From: Megasphaera elsdenii DSM 20460
GTDB lineage: Bacteria > Bacillota > Negativicutes > Veillonellales > Megasphaeraceae
DNA length: 32,000 bases
Direction of reading: 5' to 3'
NCBI RefSeq assembly: GCF_003010495.1
Contig: NZ_CP027570.1
Coordinates: 2,310,001-2,342,000, forward strand
Shown here: piece after piece, positions 343 to 18,261 of the stretch
How positions within the stretch are numbered: the stretch's first letter is position 1
Layout of the letters: each line of letters opens with the position of its first letter
Made by a program: the position numbers and the translations under genes
The notes under the pieces: model-generated
Databases searched by the model: none
What the model saw: only the letters and a program-made list of their open reading frames with translations
What the model was told of the DNA's origin: nothing

Positions 343-1152
343 TCAGTCCTCATACCAGCCGAACAGGGTTTTCCCCGTTTCTAACTGCTGAATCCGGGCC
401 ATGTCGTCTCGATTCAGGGTGACGTCAAAAATAGCGAGATTCTCAATCATCCGCTCCCGATGGGATGATTTCGGGATGACGCCGATGCCCTGCTGAACCA
501 GGTACTGCAAAGCAATCTGTGCGGCCGTCTTGCCGTATTTCTCGCCGACAGCCTGTAAAATAGGCTCCTGGAATATCGGCTTTTTCCCTTCTGTAAAAGG
601 GCTCCATGCCTGCATTTGTGTCCCCTGCGCCACAAGTGTTTGTTGGAGCTCTTTTCGTCTGTAATAGACGTGACACTCGACTTGATTGACAGCGGGGATG
701 ATATCACAACTTCCGATAAAATCAAGATATTCCCGAGCATTGAAATTAGAAATGCCAATGGCCCGGACCCGTCCCTGGCGGTAGGCTTCGGTCAAGGCTC
801 GATACATGTCTAAAGCCTCGTCATAAGGCTCGTGGATGAGCAGCAAATCGATATAGTCAGTCTGCAACCGGGCCAGCGATTCTTCAATGCCCTGCCAGGC
901 CAGTTCATAGCCGGCCCGGGTCTGACAGAGCTTCGTCGTAATGAAGATATCCTCCCGGCGCAGACCGCTCTCGGCCACGGCCTGGCCGACCATGGCTTCG
1001 TTATCGTACATGTGGGCCGTATCGATGAGGCGGTAGCCCACAGCCAAAGCATCGAGGACCGCCCGCTTCCCCGCCTCGCCCTTCAACATCCACGTACCAA
1101 AGCCGACAATCGGCATGGTCAGGCCATTATTCAAAATGATATGCTTATGCAT
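343..1152 (-). CDS. aldo/keto reductase (2,5-diketo-D-gluconate reductase-like)
   Basis: 269-aa ORF with MPIVGFGTW, DTAHMYDNE, ITTKL and LLIHEP motifs. A GGAGG-type SD lies a few nt upstream of the ATG at 1152. Convergent with the preceding partial CDS, 6-nt gap. Confidence 0.9.
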   Translation of the reverse strand: MHKHIILNNGLTMPIVGFGTWMLKGEAGKRAVLDALAVGYRLIDTAHMYDNEAMVGQAVAESGLRREDIFITTKLCQTRAGYELAWQGIEESLARLQTDYIDLLLIHEPYDEALDMYRALTEAYRQGRVRAIGISNFNAREYLDFIGSCDIIPAVNQVECHVYYRRKELQQTLVAQGTQMQAWSPFTEGKKPIFQEPILQAVGEKYGKTAAQIALQYLVQQGIGVIPKSSHRERMIENLAIFDVTLNRDDMARIQQLETGKTLFGWYED

Positions 1153-1405
1153 ACTACGCCTCCATTCATCTTACAAAATCGACTAAAAAAAGGAACTGCG
1201 CATGATACACACTTCATGCTACAGTCCCTGTCTTACTTGGCCTAGTTCAAGCCGCCGGATGATAATTAACAACAGCAATGTCCGTCATAGAATTGCAATT
1301 TGAACTATATACTCAAATATACGATACCATGTTGCTTGGCAAAAATCAACATTTCAAAATTATATGCTTATGCATGATAGATGTAGGAAATTTGAGTTTT
1401 ATCTT

Positions 1406-2032
1406 TTACAAGGAACCATTATTAAGCATCCACGTTTCAAACCGGCAAATACTCGGGTTTTGATTGATGAAATCATTGAGTTCCTCATCGATAATACGGA
1501 TTCCCTTGCGACGAGGTTCACTAGTAAATCGATTCGTGACTTCATAACAGATCCGTGGCGGTGGTGGTGTTTTCAGCGTGTAAAAGACGAGATCCGAATT
1601 ATTACGAATGGCATCTGAAACAACGGACATAGGTGCTACAGCCCATCTATCGGGAATCATCAAATATCGCTGCAACATGGAGCCCGTATTGACCGTTAAG
1701 AGCGGCAGTTCATCAGGATTCCAGTGAGAATGGTGCCATTGCAGGAAATCATTCCCCCAAATCAGCATAATTTGTTGACGGACATCTAAATCTTCACAGG
1801 CAACCTCGTCACCATAGATACTATCCTTATGGCAGATAAGATACATCAGTTCACGATAAATCAGTTTGATAACAATATCTGGATAAGACATCCTGCTAAA
1901 GACAAAACCAATATCAGCATCCAAGCTCTCAAAGGTGTCTGTATTTGATACAATCGAACGATAGCAGGGATTTTGAACACCCCCGTGTGCATAGGCAGGT
2001 TCACTCTTTTCCTTACAAATCTGCGCCATCAT
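1406..2032 (-). CDS. hypothetical protein (no family recognised)
   Basis: Long ORF in a visibly AT-richer patch. The track start at 2098 is a TTG. In-frame ATGs lie at 2077 and at 2032/2029, with no clear SD. I could not place the sequence (..WHHSHWNPDELPLL..KTPPPPRICYE..) in a family. Confidence 0.35.
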   Translation of the reverse strand: MMAQICKEKSEPAYAHGGVQNPCYRSIVSNTDTFESLDADIGFVFSRMSYPDIVIKLIYRELMYLICHKDSIYGDEVACEDLDVRQQIMLIWGNDFLQWHHSHWNPDELPLLTVNTGSMLQRYLMIPDRWAVAPMSVVSDAIRNNSDLVFYTLKTPPPPRICYEVTNRFTSEPRRKGIRIIDEELNDFINQNPSICRFETWMLNNGSL

Positions 2033-2075
2033 GGTATACTGGAACAAAAGGAATCTACAACAAGAAGCTGATATC

Positions 2076-2654
2076 ATGGGCTTATTTGATACTTTCAAGA
2101 AACTGTTCCATCATTCCATCGATAACACATCGGCAGCAGAGCAGACTCTTCCCCGGGGCAACAATCCCCCTGTGAAGATTACGTTTTCACGAGAACCCCC
2201 TGCGGATAGTCCATCTCCAGATATAGTTCCCCTCAGTGTACGTCTGAAAAAGGCGGTTCCCACAATGAGGGGCCTGTATCCGCATGAAATCCTGATGCTT
2301 GAATATGCCCATACTTACTCTACAGACTTATCGCATCAGCATTTCCAGGGATTCTGGTATTATGAATATTCCGTAGAACATCCTGGAGATGTATTAAAGT
2401 CACTGGAAAAAAAGGTTTTATCCAGCCCGGTAACCTGCGTTCTGCCATCGAGAATCAGACAGTACCGGTGATAAAAAATGAATTGAGGGCAATCGGTCAA
2501 AAAGTAAGCGGCAAAAGGCTGATCTGATTGACCGTCTGTTAATGTCCCCTATCTCCATCGCCACAAGTATATGTCCATCTGGGAAATGAACGACCGGTTG
2601 AACCATAAGAATCCGCATCACCTCGGCTTCCGCGACCTTATCTGGCAGTTCTTC
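2076..2654 (+). pseudogene. decayed SAP-domain protein gene (multiple frameshifts, probable internal deletion, 3' truncation)
   Basis: MGLFDTFKK... opens at ATG 2076. After the A-run at about 2406-2413 the sense continues in another frame (GFIQPGNLRSAIENQTVPVIKNELRAIGQKVSGK). A second shift at the A-run near 2511-2514 gives KADLIDRLL, a classic SAP/HeH motif. A third frame gives SIWEMNDRLN..FRDLIWQFFN. Homology stops at the 26-bp repeat at 2655. Confidence 0.55.
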
Positions 2655-2680
2655 AACGATGAACCCCCTTGCACCCCCCT
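2655..2680. repeat. 26-bp exact direct repeat copy 1 (aacgatgaacccccttgcacccccct); left island edge
   Basis: Identical to 9493-9518. Flanks differ on both sides (2654 c vs 9492 t; 2681 a vs 9519 g). Contains one TGCACCCCC motif (2670-2678). Confidence 0.85.
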
Positions 2681-2917
2681 ATTATATAATTACCAGTTTT
2701 CAAACCTTCGCCGCATATTCAAAGCACATATTTCCTGCATTTCTTCCTCGGAAAAATCCGATGACAGATTTTATCGATTTTGTTGCATGATTTGACAATG
2801 ACATCCCCTCCTCGCAATATATTTATTTTGTACCTATCATGGCAAAGTGTCACGCCGTTTGCTTCAGCAACATCAAAAAGCTCCTTTGCCATGCGGCAGT
2901 CATTTGGCTCTGCCCTC

Positions 2918-3955
2918 TTACTCCTTCGGTGCGTGTTTTGCCCACGCTTGGCCTTCACTGTCGGCATTTTTGGTGTTTTGCGCCATAACGCCCACCAGCG
3001 GATGAGGAACATATAGTTCTTCCAGATAGTTCCTGTCCTCGTCCGTCAGCGTCAAATCCACCGCCTTGACTGCCCCTTCCACATGATGAAGCTTGGTTGC
3101 CCCGGCTACGGGAGCATCTACCTTTGTCAGCAGCCATGCCAAGGCAATCTCGGTCATGGTGATCCGGTATTTGTCCGCAAGTTCTGCCACTCGCACAATG
3201 ATTTTCTGGTCAGCCTCCGCCATACCGTCATATTTCAGATGCGCCATACTGTCCTCTTGAAGCCTCTTGGTGATTTCGCCGGGTTTGCGGGAAAGCCTGC
3301 CGCTGGCTAAGGCGCTATACGGCGTCATGGCAATATTATCCTCTTCGCAAAGTTCTGCCATCTCCCGCTCTTCCTCACGGAAAAGCAGATTGTAATGGTT
3401 CTGCACAGAAATGAACTTGGCAAAACCTTCCTTTTCGGCGAGCGCATTCGCCTTGGCGAGCTGCCATGCGTAGCAGTTGGCGATGCCCACAAAACGCGCC
3501 TTGCCCGCTTTGACCATGCGGTTCAGTCCATCCATGACCTCATAGATTGGAGTCTTATAGTCCCACATATGGCAAATATACAGATCCACATAATCCATGC
3601 CCAAATGCTTCAAGCTCATGTCAAGAGATTTTTCGATATGCTCCTGCCCCGTCACGCCGTCTGCGATTTCCTGCGGACTGCGGGGCAGGAATTTTGTCGC
3701 CACTGCCACGTCCTCGCGTCTCGCGAAATCGCGCAAAGCCCGCCCCACATATTCCTCGCTCGTGCCGTTCTGGTAAACGATGGCGGTATCAAAGAAATTG
3801 ATGCCCAGCTCCAGTGCATGTTTGATGATGCTACGGCTCGTTTCTTCGTCCACCGTCCAACTGTGCTGCCCCGTCTTGGCATCGCCAAAGCCCATGCAGC
3901 CCAGGCAAATACGGGAGACGTGCAAATCCGAATTTCCCAGTTTCGTGTATTTCAT
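2918..3955 (-). CDS. aldo/keto reductase (Tas/YajO-like long form)
   Basis: 345-aa ORF: MKYTKLGNSDLHVSRICLGCMGFG, INFFDTA..Y..G.SEE, YVDLYICHMWD, GATKLHHVEGAV. Confidence 0.9.
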   Translation of the reverse strand: MKYTKLGNSDLHVSRICLGCMGFGDAKTGQHSWTVDEETSRSIIKHALELGINFFDTAIVYQNGTSEEYVGRALRDFARREDVAVATKFLPRSPQEIADGVTGQEHIEKSLDMSLKHLGMDYVDLYICHMWDYKTPIYEVMDGLNRMVKAGKARFVGIANCYAWQLAKANALAEKEGFAKFISVQNHYNLLFREEEREMAELCEEDNIAMTPYSALASGRLSRKPGEITKRLQEDSMAHLKYDGMAEADQKIIVRVAELADKYRITMTEIALAWLLTKVDAPVAGATKLHHVEGAVKAVDLTLTDEDRNYLEELYVPHPLVGVMAQNTKNADSEGQAWAKHAPKE

Positions 3956-3988
3956 GAAAAACAGTCCTCTCCTATCAATGAGTATATC

Positions 3989-4684
3989 TTATCGCAGTTC
4001 TTTCCTCAATCCCTCAAGCCAAGCGTCGATGTCCGCTTGGGAAGTCAGCATATGGTCGCCGCCCTCCGAATCAAACTGTATTTCCATAGCTGCGGCAAAT
4101 TTTGCCCCGGCGCAGTATTCCTTGATGTCCGTGATTACATGCCCCGGCCAGCCGCCGTGTGTCATAAAGGGAATGACCGTCTTGCCCGTCCAGTCCTGCG
4201 ATTTCAGGAAAGTGTGCATGGGAGGCGCCATGGTAAACCACCAGGTCGGCGTTCCCACGGCGATGATGTCATAATCGGCGATATTCACCGCAAGGGGCTT
4301 GATTTCCGGCATAAAGCCGGCCTCCACCTCCCGCTTCCCTTGCTCGGTCACTTCGCTGTTCCAGCCGCCATAGGGCGGATAAGGATGGGTCGGCTCGATT
4401 TCTGCATAATCGGCATCAAGAACCGTTTGCAACTGTTTGGCGATTTTCCTGGTGTTGCCACGGGAAAAGGAATAGCAGACGACCAAAATCTTCTTATCCT
4501 TGCTCATAATTCTCTCCTCCTGCTTGCTCATCATTTTTTCCTCCGCTAATTTCGCGTCCTTCATGCCGTCCGTTTTCAACGAGGAATTTTGCGGCTCGGA
4601 ATCTGCCGTAAAAGCGATGCCGAAAACGGCCAACATAGTCAGCAAAAGTGCGGCAAAGACGAACCGATATGTATGAGGCTTCAT
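3989..4684 (-). CDS. flavodoxin-family protein with an N-terminal signal/anchor extension (alternative internal start at 4507)
   Basis: Core KILVVCYSFSRGNTRKIA...YDIIAVGTPTWWFTMAPPMHTFL...GKTVIPFMTHGG is flavodoxin-like. The long form starts MKPHTYRFVFAALLLTMLAVFGIAF with SD AAGGAGG 7 nt upstream. The internal ATG at 4505-4507 (MSKDKKILVV) has its own AGGAGGAG SD. Confidence 0.8.
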   Translation of the reverse strand: MKPHTYRFVFAALLLTMLAVFGIAFTADSEPQNSSLKTDGMKDAKLAEEKMMSKQEERIMSKDKKILVVCYSFSRGNTRKIAKQLQTVLDADYAEIEPTHPYPPYGGWNSEVTEQGKREVEAGFMPEIKPLAVNIADYDIIAVGTPTWWFTMAPPMHTFLKSQDWTGKTVIPFMTHGGWPGHVITDIKEYCAGAKFAAAMEIQFDSEGGDHMLTSQADIDAWLEGLRKELR

Positions 4685-4696
4685 CGTACTGCCTCC

Positions 4697-4816
4697 TTAT
4701 ACTTCAAATTTTTCAGGCTCTAACCGCTTGATACATTTGGCAGGATTGCCCACCACGACTTCATAGTTCCCCACATCTTCTCCTATCTTTCGCAAATCAA
4801 TCCGTACTTCGTCCAT
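4697..4816 (-). pseudogene. C-terminal stub of a hexapeptide-repeat sugar O-acetyltransferase
   Basis: 39-codon ORF MDEVRIDLRKIGEDVGNYEVVVGNPAKCIKRLEPEKFEV. The VVVGNPAK.I..L ending is typical of the last beta-helix turn and tail of maltose/galactoside acetyltransferases. The rest of the gene is absent. Confidence 0.45.
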
Positions 4817-4833
4817 TTTTTGTTCCTCTTCCT

Positions 4834-6471
4834 TTAGTACATATTGATATTTTGCCAGAAAGCGAAATGGTGGCGCTGCTTGTATTCCTTCATATCCACC
4901 ATCTGCGGCTTCCCTTGGCCAAGTTTCAAATAACGGGCATGGTCGCCGTCAAAACGCTTCCATATTCCCTGCTCGTCCACTTTGGACATGCCCGTCCAGA
5001 TTTTCGCCATCTGCTTGGCGACCTTCTGCTGCTTGGGCGTGAGTTCGGTGCCGATGTCTGAAGAACCGTGAAAGCCGGGGAAAAGATACGGCAGCTCGTA
5101 AGTATGCGCCGTTCCCTGCTCAAAATCGGTCGCAACATACTTGGGACACTGCGGATCGCTGAACTCGTAGTAATAGACTTTCAGCTTGCTGTCGAGCGAA
5201 TCGGCAATCCGATAAATCGGCGCAGCAAACCAGCTGTCCGTGATGACCTGTGCATACGCCTCGGCGGGACTGCCGTAAGCCTCTGCGGGATACTCGGCCA
5301 TCACCTTGTCCGCAAAGCCGGGGATAGCGTACTGTTTTTCCAATGTCTCGAGATTGGTGCGATAGGCGGCCTCGTCCATATTTTTCCCGGCAATGCTCTC
5401 CGTCAGGGCGGCAAAGAAAGAACCCTCGTTTTGCACATTGCCAATGCCCAGCCGTTCGCCGTTTACTTCGCCGTTCTTAAAGGCTTCAGCGATGCTTGAC
5501 GGCACATACTCACCGTCACGGGTGATAATGCCGTCCAATAAATAGTTGTTTTCCAAAGCCAAAATTTCTTCCGTGGAAAGGGAGCGCAACTCCTCGGCGG
5601 TAGCGTTTTCCAATCCTGCCGCTTTAGCCAGGCCGATGCCCTTTTCCTCGGCCTGTTCCCGCGAAATCGAATGGCCATTGGCATACATGACAGGACTGGA
5701 CATGGCGATGATGTTTTTGAACAAGCCTTTGGCCTTGGGACTGGCCATCAGGATTTGCGAGCTTTGCCCGCCGGAGGATTCGCCGGAAATCGTCACATTG
5801 TCGGGATCGCCGCCGAAGTTCTCGATATTTCTCTGCACCCATTCAAGCGCCGCAATCTGATCCATCACGCCGTAATTGACAGCGGCGTGACCTTCCGCAT
5901 CAAGGGCGGGATGGGCAAAATAGCCGAACGCCCCGAGCCGATAGTTTATCGTCACCACCACGGCGCGGCCTTCCTTGGCTAAAAGCGAGGGGTCATAATC
6001 GCTCCCCGCGCCGACCACCAAAGCCCCGCCATGAATCCAGACAAAGACGGGAAGTTTATCGGGGTCGCCGGGTTGCTTCTCCGGCACGGCCACATTGAGG
6101 TACAGGCAATCTTCTGAGCCGCCTGCCGTTGCGAACACGCCCAAGTAACCCGTCTGCGCCGCTTCGCTTTTGTATTCGGTGGCATCAAGCACCCCATGCC
6201 AGTTATCGACCTTCACCGGCGGCCGCCAACGCAGCTCACCGACCGGCGGCTTGGCGTAGGGAATCCCCCGCCAGTAGCGCACACCACCCTTGGCAAAGCC
6301 CCGCACTTGCCCGTTTTCGGTATTTGCCAATACGTTTTGGCTGACGGCCTGCGCCTCTGCTGCGTACACCATCGTTTGCTGATTGGGCAGCACCGCCGGA
6401 ATAATCAACCAAGCGGCAGCGGCTGCCACAGCCAAAGTTTTCTTTAAGCGGGAAGAAAATTTGCTGCTCAT
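4834..6471 (-). CDS. secreted carboxylesterase, type B family
   Basis: 545 aa. Signal-like N-terminus (KKTLAVAAAAAWLIIPAVL...AAEAQA). Also WRGIPYAKPPVGELRW, EDCLYLNV and the nucleophile elbow GESSGG. Its ATG overlaps the upstream stop (ATGA). Confidence 0.9.
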   Translation of the reverse strand: MSSKFSSRLKKTLAVAAAAAWLIIPAVLPNQQTMVYAAEAQAVSQNVLANTENGQVRGFAKGGVRYWRGIPYAKPPVGELRWRPPVKVDNWHGVLDATEYKSEAAQTGYLGVFATAGGSEDCLYLNVAVPEKQPGDPDKLPVFVWIHGGALVVGAGSDYDPSLLAKEGRAVVVTINYRLGAFGYFAHPALDAEGHAAVNYGVMDQIAALEWVQRNIENFGGDPDNVTISGESSGGQSSQILMASPKAKGLFKNIIAMSSPVMYANGHSISREQAEEKGIGLAKAAGLENATAEELRSLSTEEILALENNYLLDGIITRDGEYVPSSIAEAFKNGEVNGERLGIGNVQNEGSFFAALTESIAGKNMDEAAYRTNLETLEKQYAIPGFADKVMAEYPAEAYGSPAEAYAQVITDSWFAAPIYRIADSLDSKLKVYYYEFSDPQCPKYVATDFEQGTAHTYELPYLFPGFHGSSDIGTELTPKQQKVAKQMAKIWTGMSKVDEQGIWKRFDGDHARYLKLGQGKPQMVDMKEYKQRHHFAFWQNINMY

Positions 6472-6839
6472 TTTGCTGCTCCCTCCTCCACATAAGCCTT
6501 CTTCATGGAATTAAACGCCGCCCACACATTCGGCCAGCCGGCATAAAACGCCTGATGGGTCAAGATTTCCGCCATTTCCTCTTTGGTGACGCCGTTCTTC
6601 TTGGCTTCCTGCATCTGGTACTGACAGGCGAAGGTATCGCCCATACCCTTGGCTACCAAGGTTGCCACCGTCACCATCGAGCGGTCACGCAGGGAAAGTT
6701 TGTCGTTCCGCGACCAGACCTCGCCGAACAGGACATCATCGTTGAGCCGGGCAAATTCCGGCGCAATCTCGCCGAGCATATCGCGCCCCGCCGTCTGCAC
6801 TACCTTTACCGCTTTTCTCTCGTTATTGTTCTGCTCCAT
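6468..6839 (-). CDS. carboxymuconolactone decarboxylase (AhpD-like) family protein
   Basis: 123 aa; EVWSRNDKLSLRDRSMVTVATL...GVTKEEMAEILTHQAFYAGWP is the CMD-domain signature. Confidence 0.85.
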   Translation of the reverse strand: MEQNNNERKAVKVVQTAGRDMLGEIAPEFARLNDDVLFGEVWSRNDKLSLRDRSMVTVATLVAKGMGDTFACQYQMQEAKKNGVTKEEMAEILTHQAFYAGWPNVWAAFNSMKKAYVEEGAAK

Positions 6840-6920
6840 TTATGCCGCCTCCGTAAACATCAAATTCATCGATAAAATTCCTGCCGCCAGCAATGCAGCT
6901 GCAAGCTTATAGAAACGCAT
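6840..6920 (-). CDS. 26-aa signal-peptide-like mini-ORF abutting the CMD start (possible severed leader)
   Basis: MRFYKLAAALLAAGILSMNLMFTEAA, with GGAGG about 8 nt upstream of the ATG at 6918-6920. Its TAA (6840-6842) directly abuts the CMD ATG (TAAATG). Below the track length cutoff. Confidence 0.3.
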   Translation of the reverse strand: MRFYKLAAALLAAGILSMNLMFTEAA

Positions 6921-6997
6921 AGTCCTATCCTCCGTCATTTCAAGGCTTTATAAGCCGCTTCATCCACCGGCTCCAGCCACTCTTTGCCCCCTTCTTT

Positions 6998-7843
6998 TTA
7001 TCTTACCTTCAGTTGATTCAGCTTTTTGATAAGTTCCACGTCCGTCAAATCGGCAATGGCATCATTCCTGTCCAGCAGGTCAATCGCCGTGATTTCCTCT
7101 TTCGTCAGACGAAAATCGAATATGTCGAAATTCTCCTCTATGCGTTTCTTGCGTACGGATTTTGGAATCGTGACGATGCCGCGCTCCACATCCCAGCGCA
7201 GTATGACCTGCGCCGGAGTTTTCCCGTATTTTTTCCCGATGGAAATAAGAGTTTTATTTTCAAGGATTCCCTTGCCGCCATGCCCCAATGGGCTCCATGC
7301 CTCCATCTGGACATCGTATTCCCGCATGATTTTCTCGGCGGCTTTTTGCTGATAATAGGGATGGAACTCCACTTGGTTGACGGCCGGCGGCAGCTTATTG
7401 TTCATGATGAAATCCACCAGACGGTCGCTGCCGAAGTTGCACACGCCGATTGCCCGAATACGCCCTTCCTGATACAGTTCCGTCATGGCCCGCCATGAGC
7501 CGTAACAGTCTCCGCAAGGCTGATGAATAAGATAGAGGTCGAGATAGTCAAGCCCCAGTTTTTGCAAGGACGTTTCAAACCCCGCTTTGGCATTTTCATA
7601 GCCCGCATCCTGTATCCATAGCTTTGTCGTGACGAACAGTTCCTCGCGGGGAATGCCGCTTTCCTTGATGGCACGTCCAACGGCTTCTTCATTGAAATAA
7701 GCCGAGGAAGTGTCGAGCAGCCGATAGCCCGTTTCCAGCGCCTGAAGGACGCTCGTCTCGCATTCCTTTGGGTCGGTCATCATGTAAACACCAAATCCCA
7801 AGAGAGGCATCTTGATGCCATTGTTCAGCATGGTATATTCCAT
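6998..7843 (-). CDS. aldo/keto reductase (DkgA/YvgN-like)
   Basis: MEYTMLNNGIKMPLLGFGVY, LDTSSAYFNEE, VTTKLW, YLIHQP. I prefer the ATG at 7843 (AGGAGA 6 nt upstream) over the track start at 7894. Confidence 0.9.
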   Translation of the reverse strand: MEYTMLNNGIKMPLLGFGVYMMTDPKECETSVLQALETGYRLLDTSSAYFNEEAVGRAIKESGIPREELFVTTKLWIQDAGYENAKAGFETSLQKLGLDYLDLYLIHQPCGDCYGSWRAMTELYQEGRIRAIGVCNFGSDRLVDFIMNNKLPPAVNQVEFHPYYQQKAAEKIMREYDVQMEAWSPLGHGGKGILENKTLISIGKKYGKTPAQVILRWDVERGIVTIPKSVRKKRIEENFDIFDFRLTKEEITAIDLLDRNDAIADLTDVELIKKLNQLKVR

Positions 7844-7874
7844 ATACATTCTCCTCTGCAATCCACTCGAAAAT

Positions 7875-7910
7875 TTACGGCTTTTGGAAGGCATTTTCCG
7901 TAACGGCCGT
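7875..7910. promoter_or_regulatory. candidate LysR operator in the divergent AKR/lysR intergenic region
   Basis: Inverted repeat TTACGG-N17-CCGTAA (7875-7903) with a nested GGAA..TTCC, followed by the 8-bp perfect palindrome ACGGCCGT (7903-7910). A plausible lysR promoter is TTGCAA (7949-7954), 17-nt spacer, TATCAT (7972-7977). Confidence 0.3.
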
Positions 7911-8013
7911 GTCCCTCCGTCTGTAAATTCATTTTATGGCAAATCTCCTTGCAACGGAAGTCGCTTTTTGCTATCATGGCATTAACCAAAAGGTTCATAC
8001 AGGAGGCTTTGCG

Positions 8014-8922
8014 ATGTACAACAAACACTTGGACGCATTTCTGATGGCGGCCGATTGCGGCAGCTTCACGAAGGCGGCGAAAAAACTCTTCATCACCCCC
8101 AATGCGCTCATCAAGCAGATCAATCTCTTGGAGGGCAGATTAGAATTGACGCTGTTTCGGCGGACGAACCACGGCATTGTGCTTACAGAGGCCGGCAAGA
8201 GCATTTATCGGGATGCCCGCCGCATCATCCATATATCCGAGCAGGCTCTGGTTACTGCCAAGGCACTCACGACAGGCAAGCAGAACATTATCCGGCTGGG
8301 CAGTTCTATGATGAATCCCTGCCGCCCCATCATGGAGCTATGGGTGGCTGTAAGCAGTCGTTATCCTCATATCAAACTTTCCATCGTCCCCATTGATGAC
8401 GGAAAAAGTGACAAACAGGATTCTTTCGCTGAAAAAACGGGAAGCGTCGACATCATTGCCGGACTCTTCCCGTCCACATTATGGAAAAATAAAGTCAATG
8501 CCCTCAAAATACGCCAGCTTCCCTTGGCGGTGGCCGTCCCCATCAATCATCCGCTGGCAAGCTGCAAAAGGCTGATGCTGACCGACCTCTACAGCGAGAC
8601 GCTCCTCATGGTGGAGCGGGGCGACACAATTTATATCGACCGCTTGCGCGATGAGCTTGAAACCGCGCACCCGCAAATCCATATCCACGATGTACCTTCC
8701 TATGACATCAGCATCTTCAACTATGCAGCCACCACGGGGCATCCCATGATTACCGCCGATATTTGGTCGGAAATCCACCCTTCCCTCGTGACGCTCCCTT
8801 GCGACTGGGGAGGCGATTACTCCGTCCCATACGGCCTGCTCTATGCCAAAGAGCCTGCGCCGCACGTCAGGGAGTTTGTGGAGATTATGACAAGTTTGAT
8901 AAAAGAACAAACAACATTTTGA
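8014..8922 (+). CDS. LysR-family transcriptional regulator
   Basis: MYNKHLDAFLMAADCGSFTKAAKKLFITPNALIKQINLLE is the LysR HTH. ATG at 8014 with AGGAGG 7 nt upstream (track start 7936 is further upstream). Divergent from the AKR-CMD-esterase-flavodoxin-AKR operon. Confidence 0.9.
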   Translation: MYNKHLDAFLMAADCGSFTKAAKKLFITPNALIKQINLLEGRLELTLFRRTNHGIVLTEAGKSIYRDARRIIHISEQALVTAKALTTGKQNIIRLGSSMMNPCRPIMELWVAVSSRYPHIKLSIVPIDDGKSDKQDSFAEKTGSVDIIAGLFPSTLWKNKVNALKIRQLPLAVAVPINHPLASCKRLMLTDLYSETLLMVERGDTIYIDRLRDELETAHPQIHIHDVPSYDISIFNYAATTGHPMITADIWSEIHPSLVTLPCDWGGDYSVPYGLLYAKEPAPHVREFVEIMTSLIKEQTTF

Positions 8923-8925
8923 TTT

Positions 8926-9447
8926 TACAGCCGTCTCTCCGTTCCATCCCGAAACACCACCGTCATTCCACCATCCACACCCACCGTCACACAATCCCCA
9001 TCGCCCCCCAGAGCGGCTCATCGAACTCCGCCACAGGCCCCTCCTGCGCCTCAAGTGTCCTGATGAACCCCGCTCCCTAAAGGGACTAGCTTCGCGTCGC
9101 AACCGCTCGCCCTTGGCTGACCGCTGGGCGATGGTCTCCGTCACCTCGTCGAATCGTGTCTTAGCTTTCTCGTACCAGCCCTCTGGCAGTCAGCTCCCTG
9201 GCAATGGAGCGGAAGGTATACCCGTCCAGGAACAAACGGTAAATCAGTTTCACCGTCCTGGCCTGTTCCTTGTTGACGGCCAGATTCCCATCCGGCCCTT
9301 TGTCATAGCCCAGAAAATGCCTGTAGGGAACACACACCTTGCCGTCAGCGAACCGCTTCCGATGACCCCAGGTCACGTTTTCCGAAATGCTCCGGCTTTC
9401 TTCCTGTGCCAGGCTGCTCATGATGATGAGGAGGAGTTCCCCTTTAC
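8926..9447 (-). pseudogene. large serine recombinase remnant A (5'-truncated, internally deleted, frameshifted)
   Basis: 9161-9445 encodes GKGELLLIIMSSLAQEESRSISENVTWGHRKRF...YTFRSIARELTARG (end of the resolvase domain and start of the recombinase domain). This is joined out of frame near 9174-9180 to YEKAKTRFDEVTETIAQRSAKGER... and ...MTVVFRDGTERRL* (stop 8926-8928). There is no catalytic N-terminus and no zinc ribbon. Confidence 0.8.
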
Positions 9448-9490
9448 CGCAAATTTTGATACAAAATAACGATGCACCCCCTATACTCGA

Positions 9491-9622
9491 TTAACGATGA
9501 ACCCCCTTGCACCCCCCTGCCTATCGTTAAGCAAGTATTCCTCGGAAGCCGCACGGGACAAGGCTTCGACAAAAAGAGAAGGGGGTGCATTTGCACCCCC
9601 TCGTCGAGGATTTTGCACCCCC
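9491..9622. repeat. junction repeat R (26-bp repeat copy 2 at 9493-9518, plus a 104-bp unit at 9519-9622 repeated at 16575-16677)
   Basis: By manual alignment, 9519-9622 vs 16575-16677 shows about 7 substitutions and one 1-nt indel, and similarity stops sharply at 9622/16677. TGCACCCCC motifs lie at 9473, 9508, 9592 and 9614, and inverted at 9581. A 40-bp site at 9491-9530 has perfect 8-bp inverted arms TTAACGAT / ATCGTTAA. Confidence 0.8.
9571..9600 (-). terminator. intrinsic terminator of the MarR-headed operon (inside R)
   Basis: On the minus strand: GGGGGTGC-AAAT-GCACCCCC (8-bp GC stem) followed by TTCTCTTTTT. It lies 62 nt downstream of the last operon stop (9662). Confidence 0.7.
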
Positions 9623-9661
9623 AGTTCATATGTCGAATGGTTTTGTAATGGCAATAGATGT

Positions 9662-10555
9662 TTATAGCCAAGTGGCCCAAGTGCTTTGCAGTGGTATCTT
9701 TGTCGTGAATTGCACGGTTGCCGACCATTTCGTTTTTTTCCACTCGCCATTTTCCTTGCGGTAATCACATTTGCATTTCAGGGCGTTCATGGTGACTTCC
9801 GATATACCCTGCAATTTTTTTGCCATGTTGAGCATAACATATTCATAGGTTTCGGCGGTATCATCGGACAGTTTCGTAATGAGCTGCTGACCGGTAAAAC
9901 CGAAAGTAAACTCGCAGGCATCGAAAAAGCCGCAAAAAAGCGGAAATTCTTCGTCAATGCTTCCATGTATGGCCTGTTTGCCGTCCAAAAACATCTCAAG
10001 AACGGCATCGTTCGAAAAGACGGTACGCAAAACTTCATAATCTTTGTTGTCCACAGATACCCAATGCTTATCAAAATTTTGCCGAATGGCCAAGCGGTCT
10101 TCTATCTGGTTTGCAGCCATAATCTCCCCTCCCGAATTTTCCTCTTTCTTGACCCATGGCATGGCAAGCCCGATATCGGTACTGAGTTTGCCGCGACCGA
10201 AAGACATATTTTCAATCGGCAGGGGATACATCATCATGCTTACATCGTCCGGGCCGATGCCGACTTTTTCCTTGGCGTAGCGAGTGACAAGTTCGGCAAG
10301 TTTCCGCTTTTGTTCCAGTGTTCTGGTGTCGCCAAAGGCCACGTTCACGACTATGCGCTTGCCGGTGCGCTGCATATCGGGAAAAGTATCCGTGATAAAA
10401 AATTCATCTTCTTTATGCTCGCTGATGATGATAAAACGGTCATCCATCGGGGTTTCCATAGCCTCGTGAAGAGCAAGATTCAAGGCATCGGCAAGATTAC
10501 GTTTCTCCTCCCCAGTGAATTGGTTCGCTCCTATGTGAACATGAAAAACAGGCAT
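9662..10555 (-). CDS. tautomerase-superfamily domain fused to a SnoaL/NTF2-like domain
   Basis: Start MPVFHVHIGANQF (Pro right after Met, the tautomerase hallmark). The N-terminal ~130 aa resemble the long tautomerase_2 type (..DRFIIISEH..VNVAFGDTRTLEQKRKL..ENMSFGRG). The C-terminal ~150 aa begin IEDRLAIRQNFDKHWVSVDNKDYEVLRTVFSNDAVLEM, a SnoaL_4/NTF2 pattern. ATG at 10555 is preferred to the track start 10579. Confidence 0.75.
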   Translation of the reverse strand: MPVFHVHIGANQFTGEEKRNLADALNLALHEAMETPMDDRFIIISEHKEDEFFITDTFPDMQRTGKRIVVNVAFGDTRTLEQKRKLAELVTRYAKEKVGIGPDDVSMMMYPLPIENMSFGRGKLSTDIGLAMPWVKKEENSGGEIMAANQIEDRLAIRQNFDKHWVSVDNKDYEVLRTVFSNDAVLEMFLDGKQAIHGSIDEEFPLFCGFFDACEFTFGFTGQQLITKLSDDTAETYEYVMLNMAKKLQGISEVTMNALKCKCDYRKENGEWKKTKWSATVQFTTKIPLQSTWATWL

Positions 10556-10571
10556 TTTATCTCCCCTCGCT

Positions 10572-11567
10572 TCATTCACTCATGGCATTTCTCGCCCAGT
10601 CCGGATTCCCGATGACGGCTCTTGCTACGCCGATCATATCAGCTTTTCCCGCTTGGAGCAGGGATTCGGCATCTTCTTTTGTTTTGACACCGCCGGTAAG
10701 GATGATGGGCAGGGTCGTTTGCTGTTTGATTGCCTCGGAGGAGTCGCCAAAGTAGCCGACGCCTTTTTTGTTGCTCGGACTCGAGCCGCAGTGTCCACCG
10801 GAAATGCTGAGGTAGGAAAGTCCCGCGCTCTCCAATATTTTTGCAGCCTGAACGCCGTCCTCAATCGTACTGCCGCCGTCCATGTAGTCTGAGGCGCCGA
10901 AGCGCATTCCCAAAATAAGATCGCGCCCCAACACCTTGCGTACAGCCGCAATTACCTGCAAATGAAGTTTCAGCCGTCCATCAAGTGTTTTGATTGTGTA
11001 AGCGTCCGTGCGTTGATTCATTAGCGGCGAATAAAATTGATTGAGCAAATAACCGTGTGCGGCGTGAATCTCCACGCCATCGAAGCCGGCAACTTTTGCC
11101 CGACGTGCTGCCGCCGCAAAATTCTCTATCAAGCCGTCGATTTCTTCTTGCGACATGGCGTGTGTCGGAGCCATCGCGCCGCCCACCATAGCTTTCTTGG
11201 GACTTACAAGTCCGCTGGGGCTGATTCCTTCCGTTACCTGAGCCAACGGCGACACTGCCCCGGCATGGGAAATTTGCAGAACAGTTTTGCATCCGTTCCC
11301 GTGAATGAGGCTTGCCAGTTTCGTGAGCCCCGCTATATCCTCGTCTTTTGCAGAGGAAAGCTGATTCTCGGAAGCTCTCCCGTTCGGCTGAACAAAACTG
11401 TGTTCGATGACAACAAGCCCGAAGCAGCCGCCCTTTGTCCGCTCATCGTAATATTTGAGCTGTTCCTCCGTCACCGTGCCGTGGTCGGATTTCTCCAAAT
11501 CCACCGGTGCCATGACCAGGCGATTTTTCAGGGCAATGCCGCCCACCTCTATGGATTCTCTCAACAT
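10572..11567 (-). CDS. Old Yellow Enzyme-type NADH:flavin oxidoreductase (TIM barrel only)
   Basis: LKNRLVMAPV, GCFGLVVIEHSFV, GFDGVEIHAAHGYLLNQFYSPLMNQRTD, ILTGGVKT..DAE.LL..GKADMIGVARA. ATG at 11567 lies downstream of the cupin stop (11596). Confidence 0.9.
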   Translation of the reverse strand: MLRESIEVGGIALKNRLVMAPVDLEKSDHGTVTEEQLKYYDERTKGGCFGLVVIEHSFVQPNGRASENQLSSAKDEDIAGLTKLASLIHGNGCKTVLQISHAGAVSPLAQVTEGISPSGLVSPKKAMVGGAMAPTHAMSQEEIDGLIENFAAAARRAKVAGFDGVEIHAAHGYLLNQFYSPLMNQRTDAYTIKTLDGRLKLHLQVIAAVRKVLGRDLILGMRFGASDYMDGGSTIEDGVQAAKILESAGLSYLSISGGHCGSSPSNKKGVGYFGDSSEAIKQQTTLPIILTGGVKTKEDAESLLQAGKADMIGVARAVIGNPDWARNAMSE

Positions 11568-11595
11568 ATTTATGTTCCCCGCCTTTCTACGGCTA

Positions 11596-11955
11596 TTATT
11601 CTGCCACAACTCCATCGGTAGCCGTATATTCTTCCAAGGAACCGGCTTTCACTTGGATGCAAACATAGGAGAGAGGTTCATCTGCCGCTGCAAAAAACTG
11701 CCGCTTTCCCGCCGGGGAAATGCGAAGCCAGTCGCCTTTCTCCAGTTGTATCTCCTCCCCATCGACAACGGCCTTGCCCCGGCCGGACAAAATCGCATAG
11801 ATTTCCTCGTTTTGCTTGTGGTAGTGGGCAAAGGGTACTTTCTTCCCTGCGGCCAGCTCATTGATGCTGATTTCCGCCCCGGTAAGTCCTAATGTATCAT
11901 GCAATTCAATGCGTTTTTCGTTGTCTTTGACCTTCGTCGTGCTGTAATTTTTCAT
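11596..11955 (-). CDS. cupin-domain protein
   Basis: 119 aa; FAHYHKQNEEIYAILSGRGKAVVDGEEIQLEKGDWLRISP is a cupin two-motif core. GAGGAGG SD upstream. Confidence 0.8.
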   Translation of the reverse strand: MKNYSTTKVKDNEKRIELHDTLGLTGAEISINELAAGKKVPFAHYHKQNEEIYAILSGRGKAVVDGEEIQLEKGDWLRISPAGKRQFFAAADEPLSYVCIQVKAGSLEEYTATDGVVAE

Positions 11956-11974
11956 GGGATTGTCCTCCTCAATT

Positions 11975-12685
11975 TTATTTCCAAATAACCGATTCCGTCA
12001 GCGGACGGCGGGTCTTGTCACGATGGGGCGTTTCGTTCCGATAGCCAAGGGCAAGAGTAACGGCTGCGCTGTAATGCTCGGTGTCGTAGAGCTTTTCCTC
12101 TGCGCCCAAGATACGGTCAAGTTCTTTCGGCTGAAAGCCCTCGATGGCGCAGGAATCCACCCCGAAGAAAGCCGCCGCCGTCATCATGTTGGCCATGACG
12201 ATATACGCTTGTTTGGCAGACCAGTCAAAGGCGGCGCGTTCTGATTCCATGGTGTTGAAGTCCTTGGTGGAAAAATTCGTGTAGGCTTCTCTGAAAAACT
12301 CATATACCTTGTCGGGAATCTGATGAATTTCCTTCAACACATGGTCAAGGTAAGCCGAGCCGAAGGTCACGTCATTTTTCTTGTTGGCAATGAATACGAT
12401 GAAGTGGCTGGCATTGTCCAAGGGATTTTGCGCGCCCCACGCAAAGGGCTTAATCTTCTGGCGAAGTTCGGCATCTTGAAGCACAATCATCTTCCACGGC
12501 TCAAAGCCCATCGAGGTCGGCGCCAGCCGCGCAGCCTCCAAGATGGCATCGAAGGTTTCCTTGGAAATTTTGGCGTTCGGATCGAATTTCTTGGTCGCAT
12601 AGCGGTACTTCAGGACATTCAGCACCTCCTCGGCAGAGAAATTCGGCTTTTGGGCGTTCATGGTCAAAATGGTGTTCGGGTTCAT
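11975..12685 (-). CDS. NAD(P)H nitroreductase (NfsB/FRase-like)
   Basis: 236 aa; RYATKKFDP..ISKETFDAILEAARLAPTSMGFEPWK and the C-terminal ..GYRNE..HRDKTRRP are nitroreductase-fold signatures. Confidence 0.85.
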   Translation of the reverse strand: MNPNTILTMNAQKPNFSAEEVLNVLKYRYATKKFDPNAKISKETFDAILEAARLAPTSMGFEPWKMIVLQDAELRQKIKPFAWGAQNPLDNASHFIVFIANKKNDVTFGSAYLDHVLKEIHQIPDKVYEFFREAYTNFSTKDFNTMESERAAFDWSAKQAYIVMANMMTAAAFFGVDSCAIEGFQPKELDRILGAEEKLYDTEHYSAAVTLALGYRNETPHRDKTRRPLTESVIWK

Positions 12686-12724
12686 AGCGTCATTCCATTC
12701 CTTTCTGTGTAATAATTTTCTCTG

Positions 12725-14273: not shown

Positions 14274-14302
14274 TCCTCCGCTGGCTTGTTTTCTCTATGG
14301 CG

Positions 14303-14728: not shown

Positions 14729-14769
14729 ATCCTCCTTGTAGTATGTATATACAGATGAAACATATAAAA

Positions 14770-15745: not shown

Positions 15746-15858
15746 CTATAGCCAGCCGTCGGCATCGACATATATTCTATCCGCGGTGGTTTTCGACACG
15801 AATCATCAGATTCCTGCATAGCACGAAAATTTTTTCGCACCGCACCATCCATCGCGCA

Positions 15859-17477: not shown

Positions 17478-17491
17478 GATGCTCCCCCGCC

Positions 17492-18187: not shown

Positions 18188-18227
18188 TTTCCGTGCCTCC
18201 TTAGCAATATATAGAACTTGTTCGATA

Positions 18228-18261
18228 TTGACATTATACACAGGGCAGTATATAATGTCAA
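18228..18261. promoter_or_regulatory. palindromic dual consensus promoter / probable TetR operator
   Basis: ttgacattatacacagggcagtatataatgtcaa. Plus strand: TTGACA (18228-33), 17 nt, TATAAT (18251-56). Minus strand: TTGACA (18261-56), 17 nt, TATAAT (18238-33). The outer 12 nt form a near-perfect inverted repeat. Confidence 0.6.

Follow-up and report, generated by a model that had tools for sequence, protein, structure and literature searches.

The window analysed here, 32,000 nucleotides of Megasphaera elsdenii DSM 20460, contains exactly two copies of the 26-mer AACGATGAACCCCCTTGCACCCCCCT, in the same + strand orientation (2655-2680 and 9493-9518), and the question is what this pair represents. 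Within the window there was no third copy even when up to 3 mismatches were allowed, 100 dinucleotide-preserving shuffles yielded no match (0 expected), and self-BLAST extended the 26-bp match on neither side. The preliminary description was correct in regarding it as a perfect direct repeat with unrelated flanks, whose recurrence by chance is not credible. It also postulated a 6.9-kb unit, made up of the LysR module and recombinase remnant A, with the two copies as its duplicated att core; this unit would have entered the R site beside the MarR-operon element and could be excised via the two 26-mers. We conclude instead that the pair is an internal piece of a conserved module of about 180 bp, here called M, whose copy at 2655 is worn by deletions. 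It is neither an att core nor the footprint of one 6.9-kb insertion. The features of the window are given below, with the evidence in brackets; LSR stands for large serine recombinase.

2031-2654, + strand: SAP-domain gene remnant, frameshifted, cut after ...IWQFFN (three-frame translation; intact orthologue in L032)
2655-2680, - strand: S1, eroded M (M positions 53-78), the first 26-mer (exact match; longer M in L048/L138/L140)
2681-8940, - strand, LysR on +: LysR cargo cassette (ORFs; Pfam on the L135 genes and LysR; 99.7% identity in L048)
2918-3955, - strand: aldo-keto reductase, LysR cassette
3989-4684, - strand: flavodoxin-like, LysR cassette
4834-6471, - strand: carboxylesterase, LysR cassette
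6468-6839, - strand: CMD-family, LysR cassette
6998-7894, - strand: second aldo-keto reductase, LysR cassette
7936-8922, + strand: divergent LysR regulator
8941-9176, - strand: recombinase remnant A, C-terminal part, residues about 440-520 (self-BLAST)
9176-9450, - strand: recombinase remnant A, N-proximal part, LSR residues 140-230 (tblastn, translation, Pfam Recombinase match)
9441-9622, - strand: S2, complete module M (sharp-edged conservation in 62 loci; conserved joint geometry)
9579-9602, - strand: terminator-like hairpin and T-run in M, 3' of the MarR-operon cargo (consensus scan)
9662-15234, - strand: MarR-operon cargo cassette (ORFs, Pfam)
15347-15722, - strand: recombinase remnant B, LSR residues about 407-520 (tblastn)
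15862-16560, - strand: recombinase remnant C, residues about 290-520, zinc ribbon (tblastn; Pfam Zn_ribbon_recom)
16568-16677, - strand: S3, partial M, positions 72-182 (repeat families D7 and D13; BLAST; sequence)
16821-20409, - strand, TetR on +: third cargo cassette, with an MBL-fold hydrolase, a DsbA-like protein and TetR (ORFs, Pfam)
20446-20825, - strand: recombinase remnant D, LSR residues about 414-518 (tblastn)

The window is an array of at least three units, in each of which a beheaded recombinase gene is followed by cargo and then by M; the copies of M lie at 2655, 9441 and 16568. The MarR cassette encodes tautomerase/SnoaL, OYE flavin oxidoreductase, cupin, nitroreductase, MBL-fold protein, a further nitroreductase, PNPOx and MarR. 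The third cassette is interrupted by a TnpB/IS605-family insertion (18309-19815), which is not in L135 or L032. The N-proximal part of remnant A starts at a GKGE joint without a catalytic domain and is 88% identical to P0002, a full-length phage LSR2 protein used as reference, while 8941-9176 is 91% identical to 20447-20683 of remnant D (self-BLAST). Remnants B and C stand in tandem with a 515-bp period, and the fusion of S3 to remnant C at about residue 290 is a deletion-type joint. Repeat R (9512-9622; its counterpart at 16568-16677 is about 91% identical) shares its left end with the right 26-mer, which is separated by 44 nt from the start of recombinase homology at 9448 (tblastn), in agreement with its earlier placement within R and about 45 nt from remnant A. 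It was also correct that both 26-mers lie in R-type sites, the copy at 2655 being the remnant of a third such module.

On the + strand, S2 begins with the joint CCCCTTTACC (9441-9450) and a P-arm-like motif, TGATACAA-N3-AACGAT, followed by the sub-repeat TAACGATGCACCCCCTATACTCGAT, the 26-mer and ATCGTTAA, which together with TTAACGAT forms an imperfect palindrome of about 40 bp. The right part holds a hairpin (GAAGCC/GGCTTC), the terminator hairpin and TTTTGCACCCCC. In the direction of the cargo genes, M reads as terminator, hairpin, repeated GGGGGT(G/T)CATCGTTA motifs, two of which, one altered, compose the 26-mer, and a terminal arm, ATCGTT-N3-TTGTATCA-N14-GGGGA. The consensus scan gave one terminator-like site in M, on the cargo strand, and no sigma-70-like promoter; M had no match in Rfam. 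The alifold consensus was weak, and in one hairpin the base changes seem, by eye, to be compensated. In Megasphaera and its gut relatives among the Negativicutes, M is the downstream end of cargo cassettes and carries the terminator of the cassette.

By exact-match scans, 62 Negativicutes loci with M were located, from genomes and from metagenomes. Its 22-nt core was present in 19 species-representative genomes and 43 metagenome contigs, the genera including Selenomonas, Mitsuokella, Schwartzia, Anaerovibrio and Dialister. All these loci had the full M context except L048 and L034, the latter identical to the first 26-mer copy of the window, and the flanks outside both ends of M differed between loci. 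Considering that most loci were retrieved by the exact 22-mer, the conservation of this part looks inflated. The identity of M was nearly uncorrelated with that of the adjacent recombinase (r = 0.19) or of either flank. Since the identities of M-left and M-right were also uncorrelated, recombination inside M is conceivable, possibly at the 26-mer itself. In IMG/VR the 22-mer had 0 matches and a second pattern recovered one full copy of M; no matches to M were found in GenBank phages and plasmids, and M was missing from the IMG/VR phages that bear full-length relatives of the type-D recombinases.

The far end of M is attached at an invariant joint (...GGTAAAGGGGA|) to LSR genes that are 48-92% identical to P0002. 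In most loci the LSR homology starts at residue 137-140 approximately, so that these genes are devoid of the catalytic domain. The joint links the arm of M to the LSR 'GE' codons (residue about 140), where the catalytic domain gives way to helix alpha-E; it recurs in most loci with enough left flank, and divergence between loci starts directly after GGGGA. The placement of GGGGA 14 nt after ATCGTT-N3-TTGTATCA was the commonest arrangement (58 of the 96 matches of ATCGTT-N2-5-TTGTATCA) and is present both in M and in M3 of L129. L079 and L087 have ACGGA in place of GGGGA, and in the M-less prophages L071 and L075 the motif is followed by TGAGA at the chromosome-proximal end. No fragment of LSR residues 1-136 was detected by tblastn in the window or in the 62 loci, aside from L044, where residues 106-136 align over M itself, a probable alignment artefact; nor were LSR 5' halves found within 10-20 kb. 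Remnant A had been taken for an integrase beside its own att site, a view that does not agree with the lack of its residues 1-139 and with the recurrence of the same joint elsewhere.

S1 is the M of the LysR cassette, that is, the downstream end of that cassette, and its wear can be followed by comparison with other loci. L032 has an intact SAP gene of 412 aa, which runs on as ...IWQFFNEESLKHL... beyond the breakpoint of the window, in accordance with the earlier statement that the left copy truncates a decayed SAP-domain gene. Compared with the native SAP gene of L032 (AACGAgGAA), the 26-mer agrees in 8 of its first 9 nt (AACGATGAA), which indicates that the left boundary of S1 is a microhomology junction. 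In L048, L138 and L140, M positions 53-182 are retained at the SAP junction with the LysR cassette next to them, and with respect to these loci 106 bp are missing from the window, the deletion lying between two direct repeats of 12 nt, TTGCACCCCCCT. As the longer joint runs into the LysR cassette, the junction between 26-mer and cassette in the window is a later deletion and not an integration crossover. S1 was worn down in two steps: a junction to the SAP gene at the 8/9 microhomology, by which M lost its left part and presumably also the adjoining recombinase remnant disappeared, and a deletion of 106 bp between the TTGCACCCCCCT repeats within M.

The R/M modules bracket gene cassettes, and the units between them are variably present among M. 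elsdenii strains. The MarR-operon unit is missing from L140, which has the LysR unit, and the MarR cassette is missing from L032, which also has a chimeric M-right. In L032, L069 and L044 the LysR unit is missing, the SAP gene is intact and there is no 26-mer at that position. L137 has an extra unit of 7.3 kb between 215-bp repeats, each composed of M and 43 bp of recombinase gene, and L139 has a deletion of 11.5 kb, in which a crossover between remnants A and D removed all that lay between. L135 (CP027569.1) carries a different recombinase-remnant/M allele, and its second 26-mer copy, AACGATGcACCCCCTTGCACCCCCCT, agrees in only 25 of 26 positions; the perfection of the repeat is a strain-specific trait.

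Taking these data together, we consider it probable that the locus consists of eroded M copies in an array of cassettes joined by recombinase action. Elements that bear a recombinase gene and cargo, with M at one end, would integrate into the recombinase gene of a resident element by serine-recombinase site-specific recombination, after which M would border on the 3' portion displaced from the target gene. Repeated integration would give rise to an array. Its decay, with loss or reshuffling of units, would be due to deletion and to homologous recombination in which M copies, or else recombinase remnants, serve as the repeats. Since neither the reciprocal joint (recombinase residues 1-139 plus the other end of the element) nor a circular form was found, we infer integration from a single junction type. 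The module with its joints, both erosion steps, the differences between strains and two array heads are observed, whereas the recombining enzyme, the direction of the events and the choice between two variants of integration are inferred. Only two independent array heads were recovered. In L079/L080 the order is decayed prophage, SHOCT, near-full-length recombinase, cargo, M and beheaded recombinase; in L129 it is phage, LSR1, full LSR2, cargo, M-like and beheaded recombinase. Identity between the two recombinase copies is as low as 49% in one head and 57% in the other, a divergence too great for homologous recombination. The head gene of L079 is 81-91% identical to LSR2 genes of IMG/VR phages, only from the GE codons onward, and insertion of the cassette type, with regeneration of the target gene, fits this chimeric head better than whole-element integration.

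The att-core proposal is extremely improbable. It has in its favour the perfect repeat with four unrelated flanks, the existence of contigs without the unit (L032, L069, L044), and a predicted joint, SAP remnant + 26-mer + (c/g)(g/c)ctatcgttaagc..., which does exist in L048, L138 and L140. That joint is, however, no empty site: where SAP + 26-mer + ...gcctatcgttaagc... and then the MarR operon were expected, it meets the LysR cassette after 106 bp of M, and the right boundary in the window is the 106-bp deletion. The contigs without the unit keep the SAP gene intact with no 26-mer there, the circle junction (ctatactcgatt + 26-mer + attatataattaccag) was seen in 0 of the 62 loci with the 22-mer core, no catalytic recombinase was found in the unit (Pfam, tblastn), and the imperfect repeat of CP027569 also speaks against it. 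L140, with the LysR unit and not the MarR unit, argues against insertion into an already resident MarR-operon element.

It is unlikely, in our judgement, that M became fused to a recombinase gene, near residue 140, through one ancient deletion and that the resulting block of beheaded recombinase and M then spread with no site-specific targeting of recombinase genes, its later diversity arising from homologous recombination, gene conversion with resident phage recombinases, duplication and deletion. One origin would predict the invariance of GGTAAAGGGGA; L139, L137 and the chimeric M-right of L032 directly show homologous exchange between repeats; and the 120 type-D recombinase homologues listed, all of at most 408 aa and nearly all without a Resolvase domain, are compatible with an old truncated lineage. 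However, the recombinases differ from the first bases after GGGGA while M is about 86% identical, and gene conversion could not reach the joint without homology on the M side. It is also opposed by the divergence between head and downstream copies, by the GE codons being once more the point where homology of the L079 head gene breaks, and by the 14-nt joint spacing that divergent M types (M3 in L129, ACGGA in L079/L087) retain. We give very little weight to the idea that the beheaded recombinase has been maintained as a functional DNA-binding protein without catalysis (decoy, repressor or targeting factor), which keeps helix alpha-E, recombinase domain, zinc ribbon and coiled coil, M being its promoter/leader or a small-RNA gene and the 26-mer a regulatory or RNA element. 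Intact frames of about 377-398 aa are indeed frequent and diverse, and the C-rich motifs of M and its seemingly compensated hairpin would agree with such a role. Against it, about two-thirds of the copies are visibly decayed, several intact ones have no ATG at the usual position or canonical upstream start (e.g., ELLITVLSS...), and where the ATG exists the SD-like AAAGGGG is 17 nt from it; the promoter, Rfam and alifold results point the same way.

The array of cassettes proposed here can be compared with several known systems. In SCCmec-type composite islands, whose large serine recombinases are CcrA/CcrB, repeated integration-site sequences of 15-30 bp separate SCC and pseudo-SCC modules, and the target is the 3' end of rlmH. 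Similarly, elements related to ours carry a pair of large serine recombinases (LSR1 and LSR2, overlapping in tandem), tandem cargo modules lie between repeated site sequences, recombinase-less modules persist and module content varies by strain. In contrast, our joint lies inside recombinase genes, the repeat is a 180-bp module with a terminator, and no active recombinase pair is found within this window. In ICESt1/CIME of Streptococcus thermophilus, integrative and cis-mobilizable elements undergo tandem accretion and deletion through a tyrosine integrase at a chromosomal att at a gene 3' end. There, as we propose here, arrays grow by site-specific integration beside or into a resident element and decay to recombinase-less modules bounded by att-type repeats, but without a beheaded recombinase gene at every boundary. 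The archaeal SSV1 has attP within its own tyrosine integrase gene, which integration splits so that both halves flank the provirus; the recombination site within recombinase coding sequence and the gene fragments at element ends are alike, whereas here the 5' halves are missing within 10-20 kb and the split gene appears to be that of the resident element. Within Negativicutes, the beta-lactamase gene aci1 has been described in a 'Russian doll' context (Rands et al., bioRxiv 10.1101/235788): it lies among prophage remains and 'two serine recombinases', the mobile sequences on its flanks are diverse, and the authors identified no terminal repeats. That account contains neither module M nor the fixed joint or the cassette arrays. 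In Dialister (L009) a class A beta-lactamase-like ORF (by eye) directly follows the M-joined beheaded recombinase gene. Finally, tRNA/tmRNA-gene islands integrate into a gene, regenerate the target and leave the displaced fragment at the far end, tandem arrays included (Islander, PMC4383910). They differ from our locus in that the target here is a protein-coding recombinase gene and not tDNA, the enzyme is presumably a serine and not a tyrosine recombinase, every joint is accompanied by a conserved 180-bp module, and target regeneration appears in one case only. The shared features are these: a conserved gene is the target, its displaced 3' fragment marks the island end, serial integration leaves displaced fragments with cargo between them, and L079 resembles a regenerated, chimeric target gene.

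The 26-mer AACGATGAACCCCCTTGCACCCCCCT was found as two exact copies in the window, at 2655-2680 and 9493-9518. No third copy was detected within the window when up to 3 mismatches were allowed, none of the shuffled sequences used as control gave a match (0/100), and a self-BLAST of the window did not extend the match beyond the 26-mer on either side. The preliminary description took these copies as the att core of an excisable 6.9-kb unit formed by the LysR cassette (2681-8940) and remnant A, one of the four 3' pieces (A-D) of large serine recombinase (LSR) genes in the window. Identical direct repeats do lie at both ends of this unit; in M. elsdenii CP027569 (L135, CP027569.1:2406624-2427610) the second copy is conserved at 25/26 positions and sits in an allele of module M with a single sub-repeat, fused to a different LSR remnant. 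M is a conserved module of about 180 bp, with a full copy, S2, at 9441-9622 and partial copies S1 (2655-2680) and S3 (16568-16677). Tempting as the reading of an excisable unit is, these positions hold one period of an array in decay, made of cargo cassettes linked to recombinase genes.

A 22-nt core of M was present in 19 loci of species-representative genomes (Selenomonas, Selenomonadaceae, Mitsuokella, Schwartzia, Anaerovibrio, Dialister and Veillonellaceae), on up to three contigs per MAG, and in 43 metagenome contigs from rumen and human gut; considering that the M loci were gathered mostly by this exact sequence, it appears more conserved by ascertainment. The copies found independently of it (L079, L087, L122 and second copies within loci) had 1-2 changes in the 26-mer region. 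The context of ~180 bp surrounded the core in every locus except L034, which has the arrangement of the window's first copy, and L048. M starts with CCCCTTTACC and ends with TTTTGCACCCCC, and the flanks past both limits are unrelated between loci. On the gene strand (minus), M comes after the last cargo gene and is composed as follows.

Parts of M in minus-strand order
Part 1: GGGGGTGCAAAA
Part 2: terminator hairpin and T-run
Part 3: GAAGCC/GGCTTC hairpin
Part 4: TTAACGAT
Part 5: 26-mer region, GGGGGGTGCAAGGGGGTTCATCGTT
Part 6: 25-nt sub-repeat, with 0, 1 or 2 extra copies depending on the locus
Part 7: ATCGTTATTTTGTATCA
Part 8: 14 nt, then GGGGA

The 26-mer is held in an imperfect palindrome of ~40 bp, TTAACGAT-N22/24-ATCGTTAA. 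At 9485-9532 it reads TTAACGATG-N22-CTATCGTTAA; with about 40 bp it is as long as a serine-integrase att site, and every M copy retains it. GGGGGT(G/T)CATCGTTA could also be seen on the gene strand, twice in direct orientation, together with CCTATCGTTAA, present once and inverted with respect to the two direct copies. The palindrome and these direct and inverted repeats may be accessory binding sites, and the GGGGGTKCATCGTTA repeats, the 26-mer included, are candidates for the same role. The identities of M-left and M-right were uncorrelated, so exchange inside M is possible; the correlations of M variants with the flanks, on either the cargo or the recombinase side, were all weak, M being a mosaic. 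No match to M was obtained in GenBank phages and PLSDB plasmids. In IMG/VR the 22-mer core gave 0 matches, a hairpin-pattern search returned one full M (L087) and one fragment, and no M was seen downstream of full-length type-D recombinases. The complete copy, the only one in IMG/VR, is located between two fragments of fhaB/cdiA-like (TPS-domain) genes (L087, UViG_3300007566_000176, 565-3983), and its GGTAAGACGGA end is fused to non-recombinase DNA.

The left flank of M (+ strand), read on the minus strand, encodes GKGE(L/I)L..SSLAQEESRSISENV..., which corresponds to the sequence of an LSR beginning with helix alpha-E. When the full-length 522-aa phage LSR2 protein P0002 was used as tblastn query, the homology adjoining M started at residue 137-140 in most loci, with identities of 48 to 92%. 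No real match to residues 1-136 was obtained by tblastn in the window and the 62 M loci, which reach up to about 10-20 kb from M; in L044, residues 106-136 were aligned over M itself, a probable alignment artefact. Neither a reciprocal junction (attL) nor a reconstructable attP/attB was found in loci of that reach. We call beheaded these genes without catalytic domain. No LSR gene of the window combines the Resolvase, Recombinase and zinc-ribbon domains, there being only the four 3' remnants; full-length LSR genes are present in related loci (L020-27, L071-78, L079, L129), either paired (LSR1/LSR2) or as one frameshifted head gene. Past the other end of M, beyond 3-7 kb of cargo, there is usually the 3' end of another LSR remnant, so that the gene-strand layout is periodic: LSR 3' part, cargo and M, joined to the next LSR 3' part, cargo and M. 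The non-canonical joints are deletions from inside M into the neighbouring LSR remnant.

Deletion joints
S3, at 16568: M position ~72 to LSR residue ~290
L057: M position ~56 to LSR residue ~495
L002 and L039: M position ~25 to LSR residue ~258

An apparent insertion of M into a terminase gene (L005) was reinterpreted as a deletion which left only 'GKGDIM' of the recombinase gene. All the listed homologues of remnant C (120/120) had 408 aa or less, nearly all without Resolvase domain; this fits abundant displaced fragments and equally fits an old truncated lineage. In L081 (7598-7870) a phage LSR1 and a full LSR2 are followed by AATCGTT repeats and TTTGCACCC, and this region is fused to a second recombinase gene from residue ~93 (KSLSRFSRN). 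This resembles another kind of joint within recombinase genes, analogous to that of M and with an M-like region of ATCGTT repeats.

The comparison of related loci explains how 26 bp were left at 2655. L048, L138 and L140 share the window's junction with the SAP-domain gene remnant (2031-2654), ...ggcagttcttc|AACGATGAACC..., and past it they keep positions 53-182 of M, its entire right half, followed by the cassette start ...TTTTGCACCCCCCT|gttatataattaccag, 99.7% identical to the window. The window, L034, L135, L136 and L137 are without exactly 106 bp between the direct repeats TTGCACCCCCCT, which results in CCTTGCACCCCCCT|attatataattaccag. The sequence of the intact SAP gene of L032 is here ttcttcAACGAgGAAtcactt, which agrees with the first bases of the 26-mer at 8 of 9 positions, and in L032, L018 and L058 the 3' end of a beheaded LSR comes after the SAP gene in convergent orientation. 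From this layout and the microhomology, the simplest ancestral order is SAP gene, beheaded LSR, M and LysR cassette. A microhomology deletion would have joined the SAP gene to position 53 of M, a later one would have removed the 106 bp between the TTGCACCCCCCT repeats, and the 26-mer would be the residue of both.

The edges of S1, postulated as integration crossovers, are therefore the 106-bp deletion between 12-nt repeats on the right and the SAP microhomology on the left. The empty site was expected to join the outer flanks through one core copy; L032, L069 and L044 are without the unit, yet their SAP gene is intact and there is no 26-mer. The SAP/26-mer joint predicted as the empty site does exist in L048, L138 and L140, all of which still carry the LysR cassette. 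No functional recombinase is encoded in the unit: remnant A covers residues 140-230 and about 440-520, without Resolvase domain. The predicted circle junction, ctatactcgatt + 26-mer + attatataattaccag, was absent in 62/62 loci, as the reading of the 26-mer as an eroded M predicts. The reading as an excisable unit bracketed by an att core is not borne out in its specifics; what stands of it is that R-type sites delimit strain-variable cassettes. Short perfect repeats at cassette edges can be the remains of longer modules.

Long repeats of the window
9512-9622 and 16568-16677: repeat R, about 91% identical
8941-9176 and 20447-20683, minus strand: LSR 3' repeat, about 91% identical (Pfam Recombinase/Zn_ribbon_recom, tblastn)
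15352-15722 and 15867-16237, minus strand: LSR 3' repeat, about 81% identical (Pfam Recombinase/Zn_ribbon_recom, tblastn)

The modules lie between repeated sites, with three M copies in the window, and the M. elsdenii panel gains and loses units at M and at the recombinase repeats. L140 has the LysR unit, remnant A and M, and then directly the MBL/DsbA cassette (16821-20409 in the window), with no MarR unit, while L032, L069 and L044 have neither the LysR nor the MarR unit. In L032 the first part of M-right is like S2 and the last part like S3. L137 carries an additional 7.3-kb cargo unit between 215-bp repeats, which are composed of 43 bp of LSR and of M; L048 has extra cargo in the same interval, whose composition matches that of L137 only partly. 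In L139, remnants A (8941-9176) and D recombined by a crossover, with the loss of 11.5 kb. In the Selenomonadaceae MAG L003, the tautomerase-proximal start of the MarR-operon cassette (9662-15234 in the window), a cargo flank of ~25 nt, was found with M beside a different LSR remnant.

Other features of the window were also noted. Remnants B and C are in tandem at 15347-16560, with a period of 515 bp, 81% identity and neither cargo nor M in the interval; the tandem may result from the deletion of a unit or from a local duplication. A 238-bp repeat (84% identical) occurs at 20901-21138, unannotated, and at 22497-22734, inside the MarR gene 22386-22847; a 51-bp copy of the 3' end of an aldo-keto reductase gene relates 343-393 and 21541-21591 (80% identical). 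These two repeats are located at the right edge of the island, ahead of the core gene mscL (23026-23487). The 230-aa ORF at 1406-2098 (minus strand) adjoins the SAP gene and was found in all related strains; it is probably a decayed regulator, with a LysR substrate-binding match of 23.6 bits, below the cut-off of 28. A TnpB element (IS605 OrfB / Cas12f-like TNB) of 1507 bp lies at 18309-19815, between the DsbA-like gene and TetR; CP027569 and L032/L069 are contiguous across the insertion point, so the insertion is strain-specific.

Several identities were considered for M. An element that splits its own integrase, as those of SSV type do, would leave a recombinase 5' fragment nearby, and no real one was detected near any M. 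A dispersed REP/MITE-like repeat is contradicted by the 62 loci with at most three contigs per MAG and by the constant neighbours: on the left of M there is, in nearly all 62 loci, a beheaded recombinase gene or its visible deletion derivative, the exception being L087 (fhaB-like). By eye, GTTAAGC in M fits the integron attC core RYYYAAC/GTTRRRY; the palindrome is only ~40 bp with an unpaired 22-nt centre, against the 57-141 bp required, and no tyrosine recombinase, the class of the integron IntI, was found in Pfam scans of 20 window ORFs. With regard to a structured RNA, there was no Rfam match at the gathering threshold in the whole window and none at E <= 5 in 9300-9800, and RNAalifold on 50 M copies, both strands, gave a weak, partial consensus from a gappy alignment. 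An omega-RNA or end of the TnpB element was discarded, the TnpB insertion being strain-specific and apart from M.

M identity (mean 86%) was compared with that of the LSR flank over its first 150 nt, and the two were nearly uncorrelated (r = 0.19). M identity was still 86% where the LSR flank was only 60-70% identical, and LSR variation began from the first bases past GGGGA, GGTAAAGGGGA being invariant. This points to separate histories of M and the adjacent LSR. Two array heads could be recognized. In L079/L080 a decayed prophage is followed by SHOCT, a near-full-length LSR, Mga/PTS/transketolase cargo, M (83% identical) and a beheaded LSR; L129 has a phage holin, SHOCT, LSR1, a full LSR2, cargo, an M-like region and a beheaded LSR. 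Head and downstream LSR copies were 49% and 57% identical, and Campbell-type homologous integration was excluded for these heads by such identities between the gene copies. The head gene of L079 matched IMG/VR phage LSR2 genes (81-91%) only from the GE codons onward, and by this comparison it is chimeric, with a 5' part from another lineage. M and the divergent M-like M3 of L129 share the arm geometry ATCGTT-N3-TTGTATCA-N14-GGGGA, and the L079/L087 variant has ACGGA in place of GGGGA. The motif ATCGTT-N3-TTGTATCA, followed by TGAGA, was also observed at the chromosome-proximal end of the M-less LSR1/LSR2 prophages L071 and L075, which also have variable cargo between LSR2 and the element end.

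Taken together, the separate histories of M and LSR, the two array heads, the chimeric L079 gene and the fixed arm geometry argue for site-specific joining. M is most likely a candidate recombinase-binding end (P arm, accessory repeats and terminator) of LSR-associated elements. The attachment site would be inside LSR genes, at the boundary between the catalytic domain and alpha-E. Whole elements could integrate into the recombinase gene of a resident, resulting in nested prophages; or, in the variant suggested by L079, cassettes made of LSR 3' part, cargo and M could integrate with regeneration of a chimeric gene. Neither the reciprocal joint nor a circular form was observed in the loci.

Cargo was also seen in other settings. 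In L009 (Dialister succinatiphilus YIT 11850, 3446-5830) an ORF of 287 aa, assigned by eye as class A beta-lactamase-like, immediately follows a beheaded recombinase gene which looks intact and is fused to M, with IS3-family and IS4-like genes nearby. L071-L078 are LSR1/LSR2 prophages at one common chromosomal site, most of them with SHOCT-domain genes ahead of the recombinase pair; between LSR2 and the element end they have either ArfC and a SAP-domain protein or an ApaLI-type restriction-modification pair, and this place downstream of the recombinase gene is a variable cargo/defence slot. In L122-L128 a beheaded recombinase (377 aa) and M/M2 cassettes (MarR-PNPOx-cupin; MerR-GFO/IDH-glyoxalase-AKR-flavodoxins) have a DnaC/IstB-like gene on one side and a NikA/TrwC relaxase on the other, neighbours which suggest that the arrays are also in conjugative or mobilizable elements.

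M together with its fixed joint gives a sequence signature by which the limits of cassettes can be located in Megasphaera, Selenomonas, Mitsuokella, Dialister and relatives. The cargo of these regions includes redox/detoxification operons and genes for restriction and defence, as well as the class A beta-lactamase-like gene in Dialister. Should the integration model hold, recombinase genes would themselves be attachment sites, in conflict or cooperation between mobile elements. Large serine recombinases are used as genome-engineering tools, and under the same model the recurrent breakpoint at the boundary of the catalytic and DNA-binding domains would be a natural point for LSR domain swaps.

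In the literature searched on serine recombinases with Selenomonas, Negativicutes or accretion, only the aci1 preprint was relevant, and as a junction module M appears to be undescribed there. Earlier work identified no terminal repeats in such regions (bioRxiv 10.1101/235788). We tentatively propose, at somewhat short of even confidence, an undescribed LSR-based cargo-accumulating system of Negativicutes, in which elements or cassettes ending in the res-like 180-bp M would insert at a precise point within the coding sequence of a resident recombinase gene, the catalytic-domain/alpha-E boundary, at least some of them bringing a replacement 3' part that yields a chimeric full-length head gene. 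Its repetition would build an array resembling those of integrons, with detoxification, resistance and defence cassettes each tagged by a beheaded recombinase gene; the aci1 context would be one example. The L009 arrangement matches this published Negativicutes aci1 context, and the 'Russian doll' description of the preprint fits the nested-prophage variant (bioRxiv 10.1101/235788).
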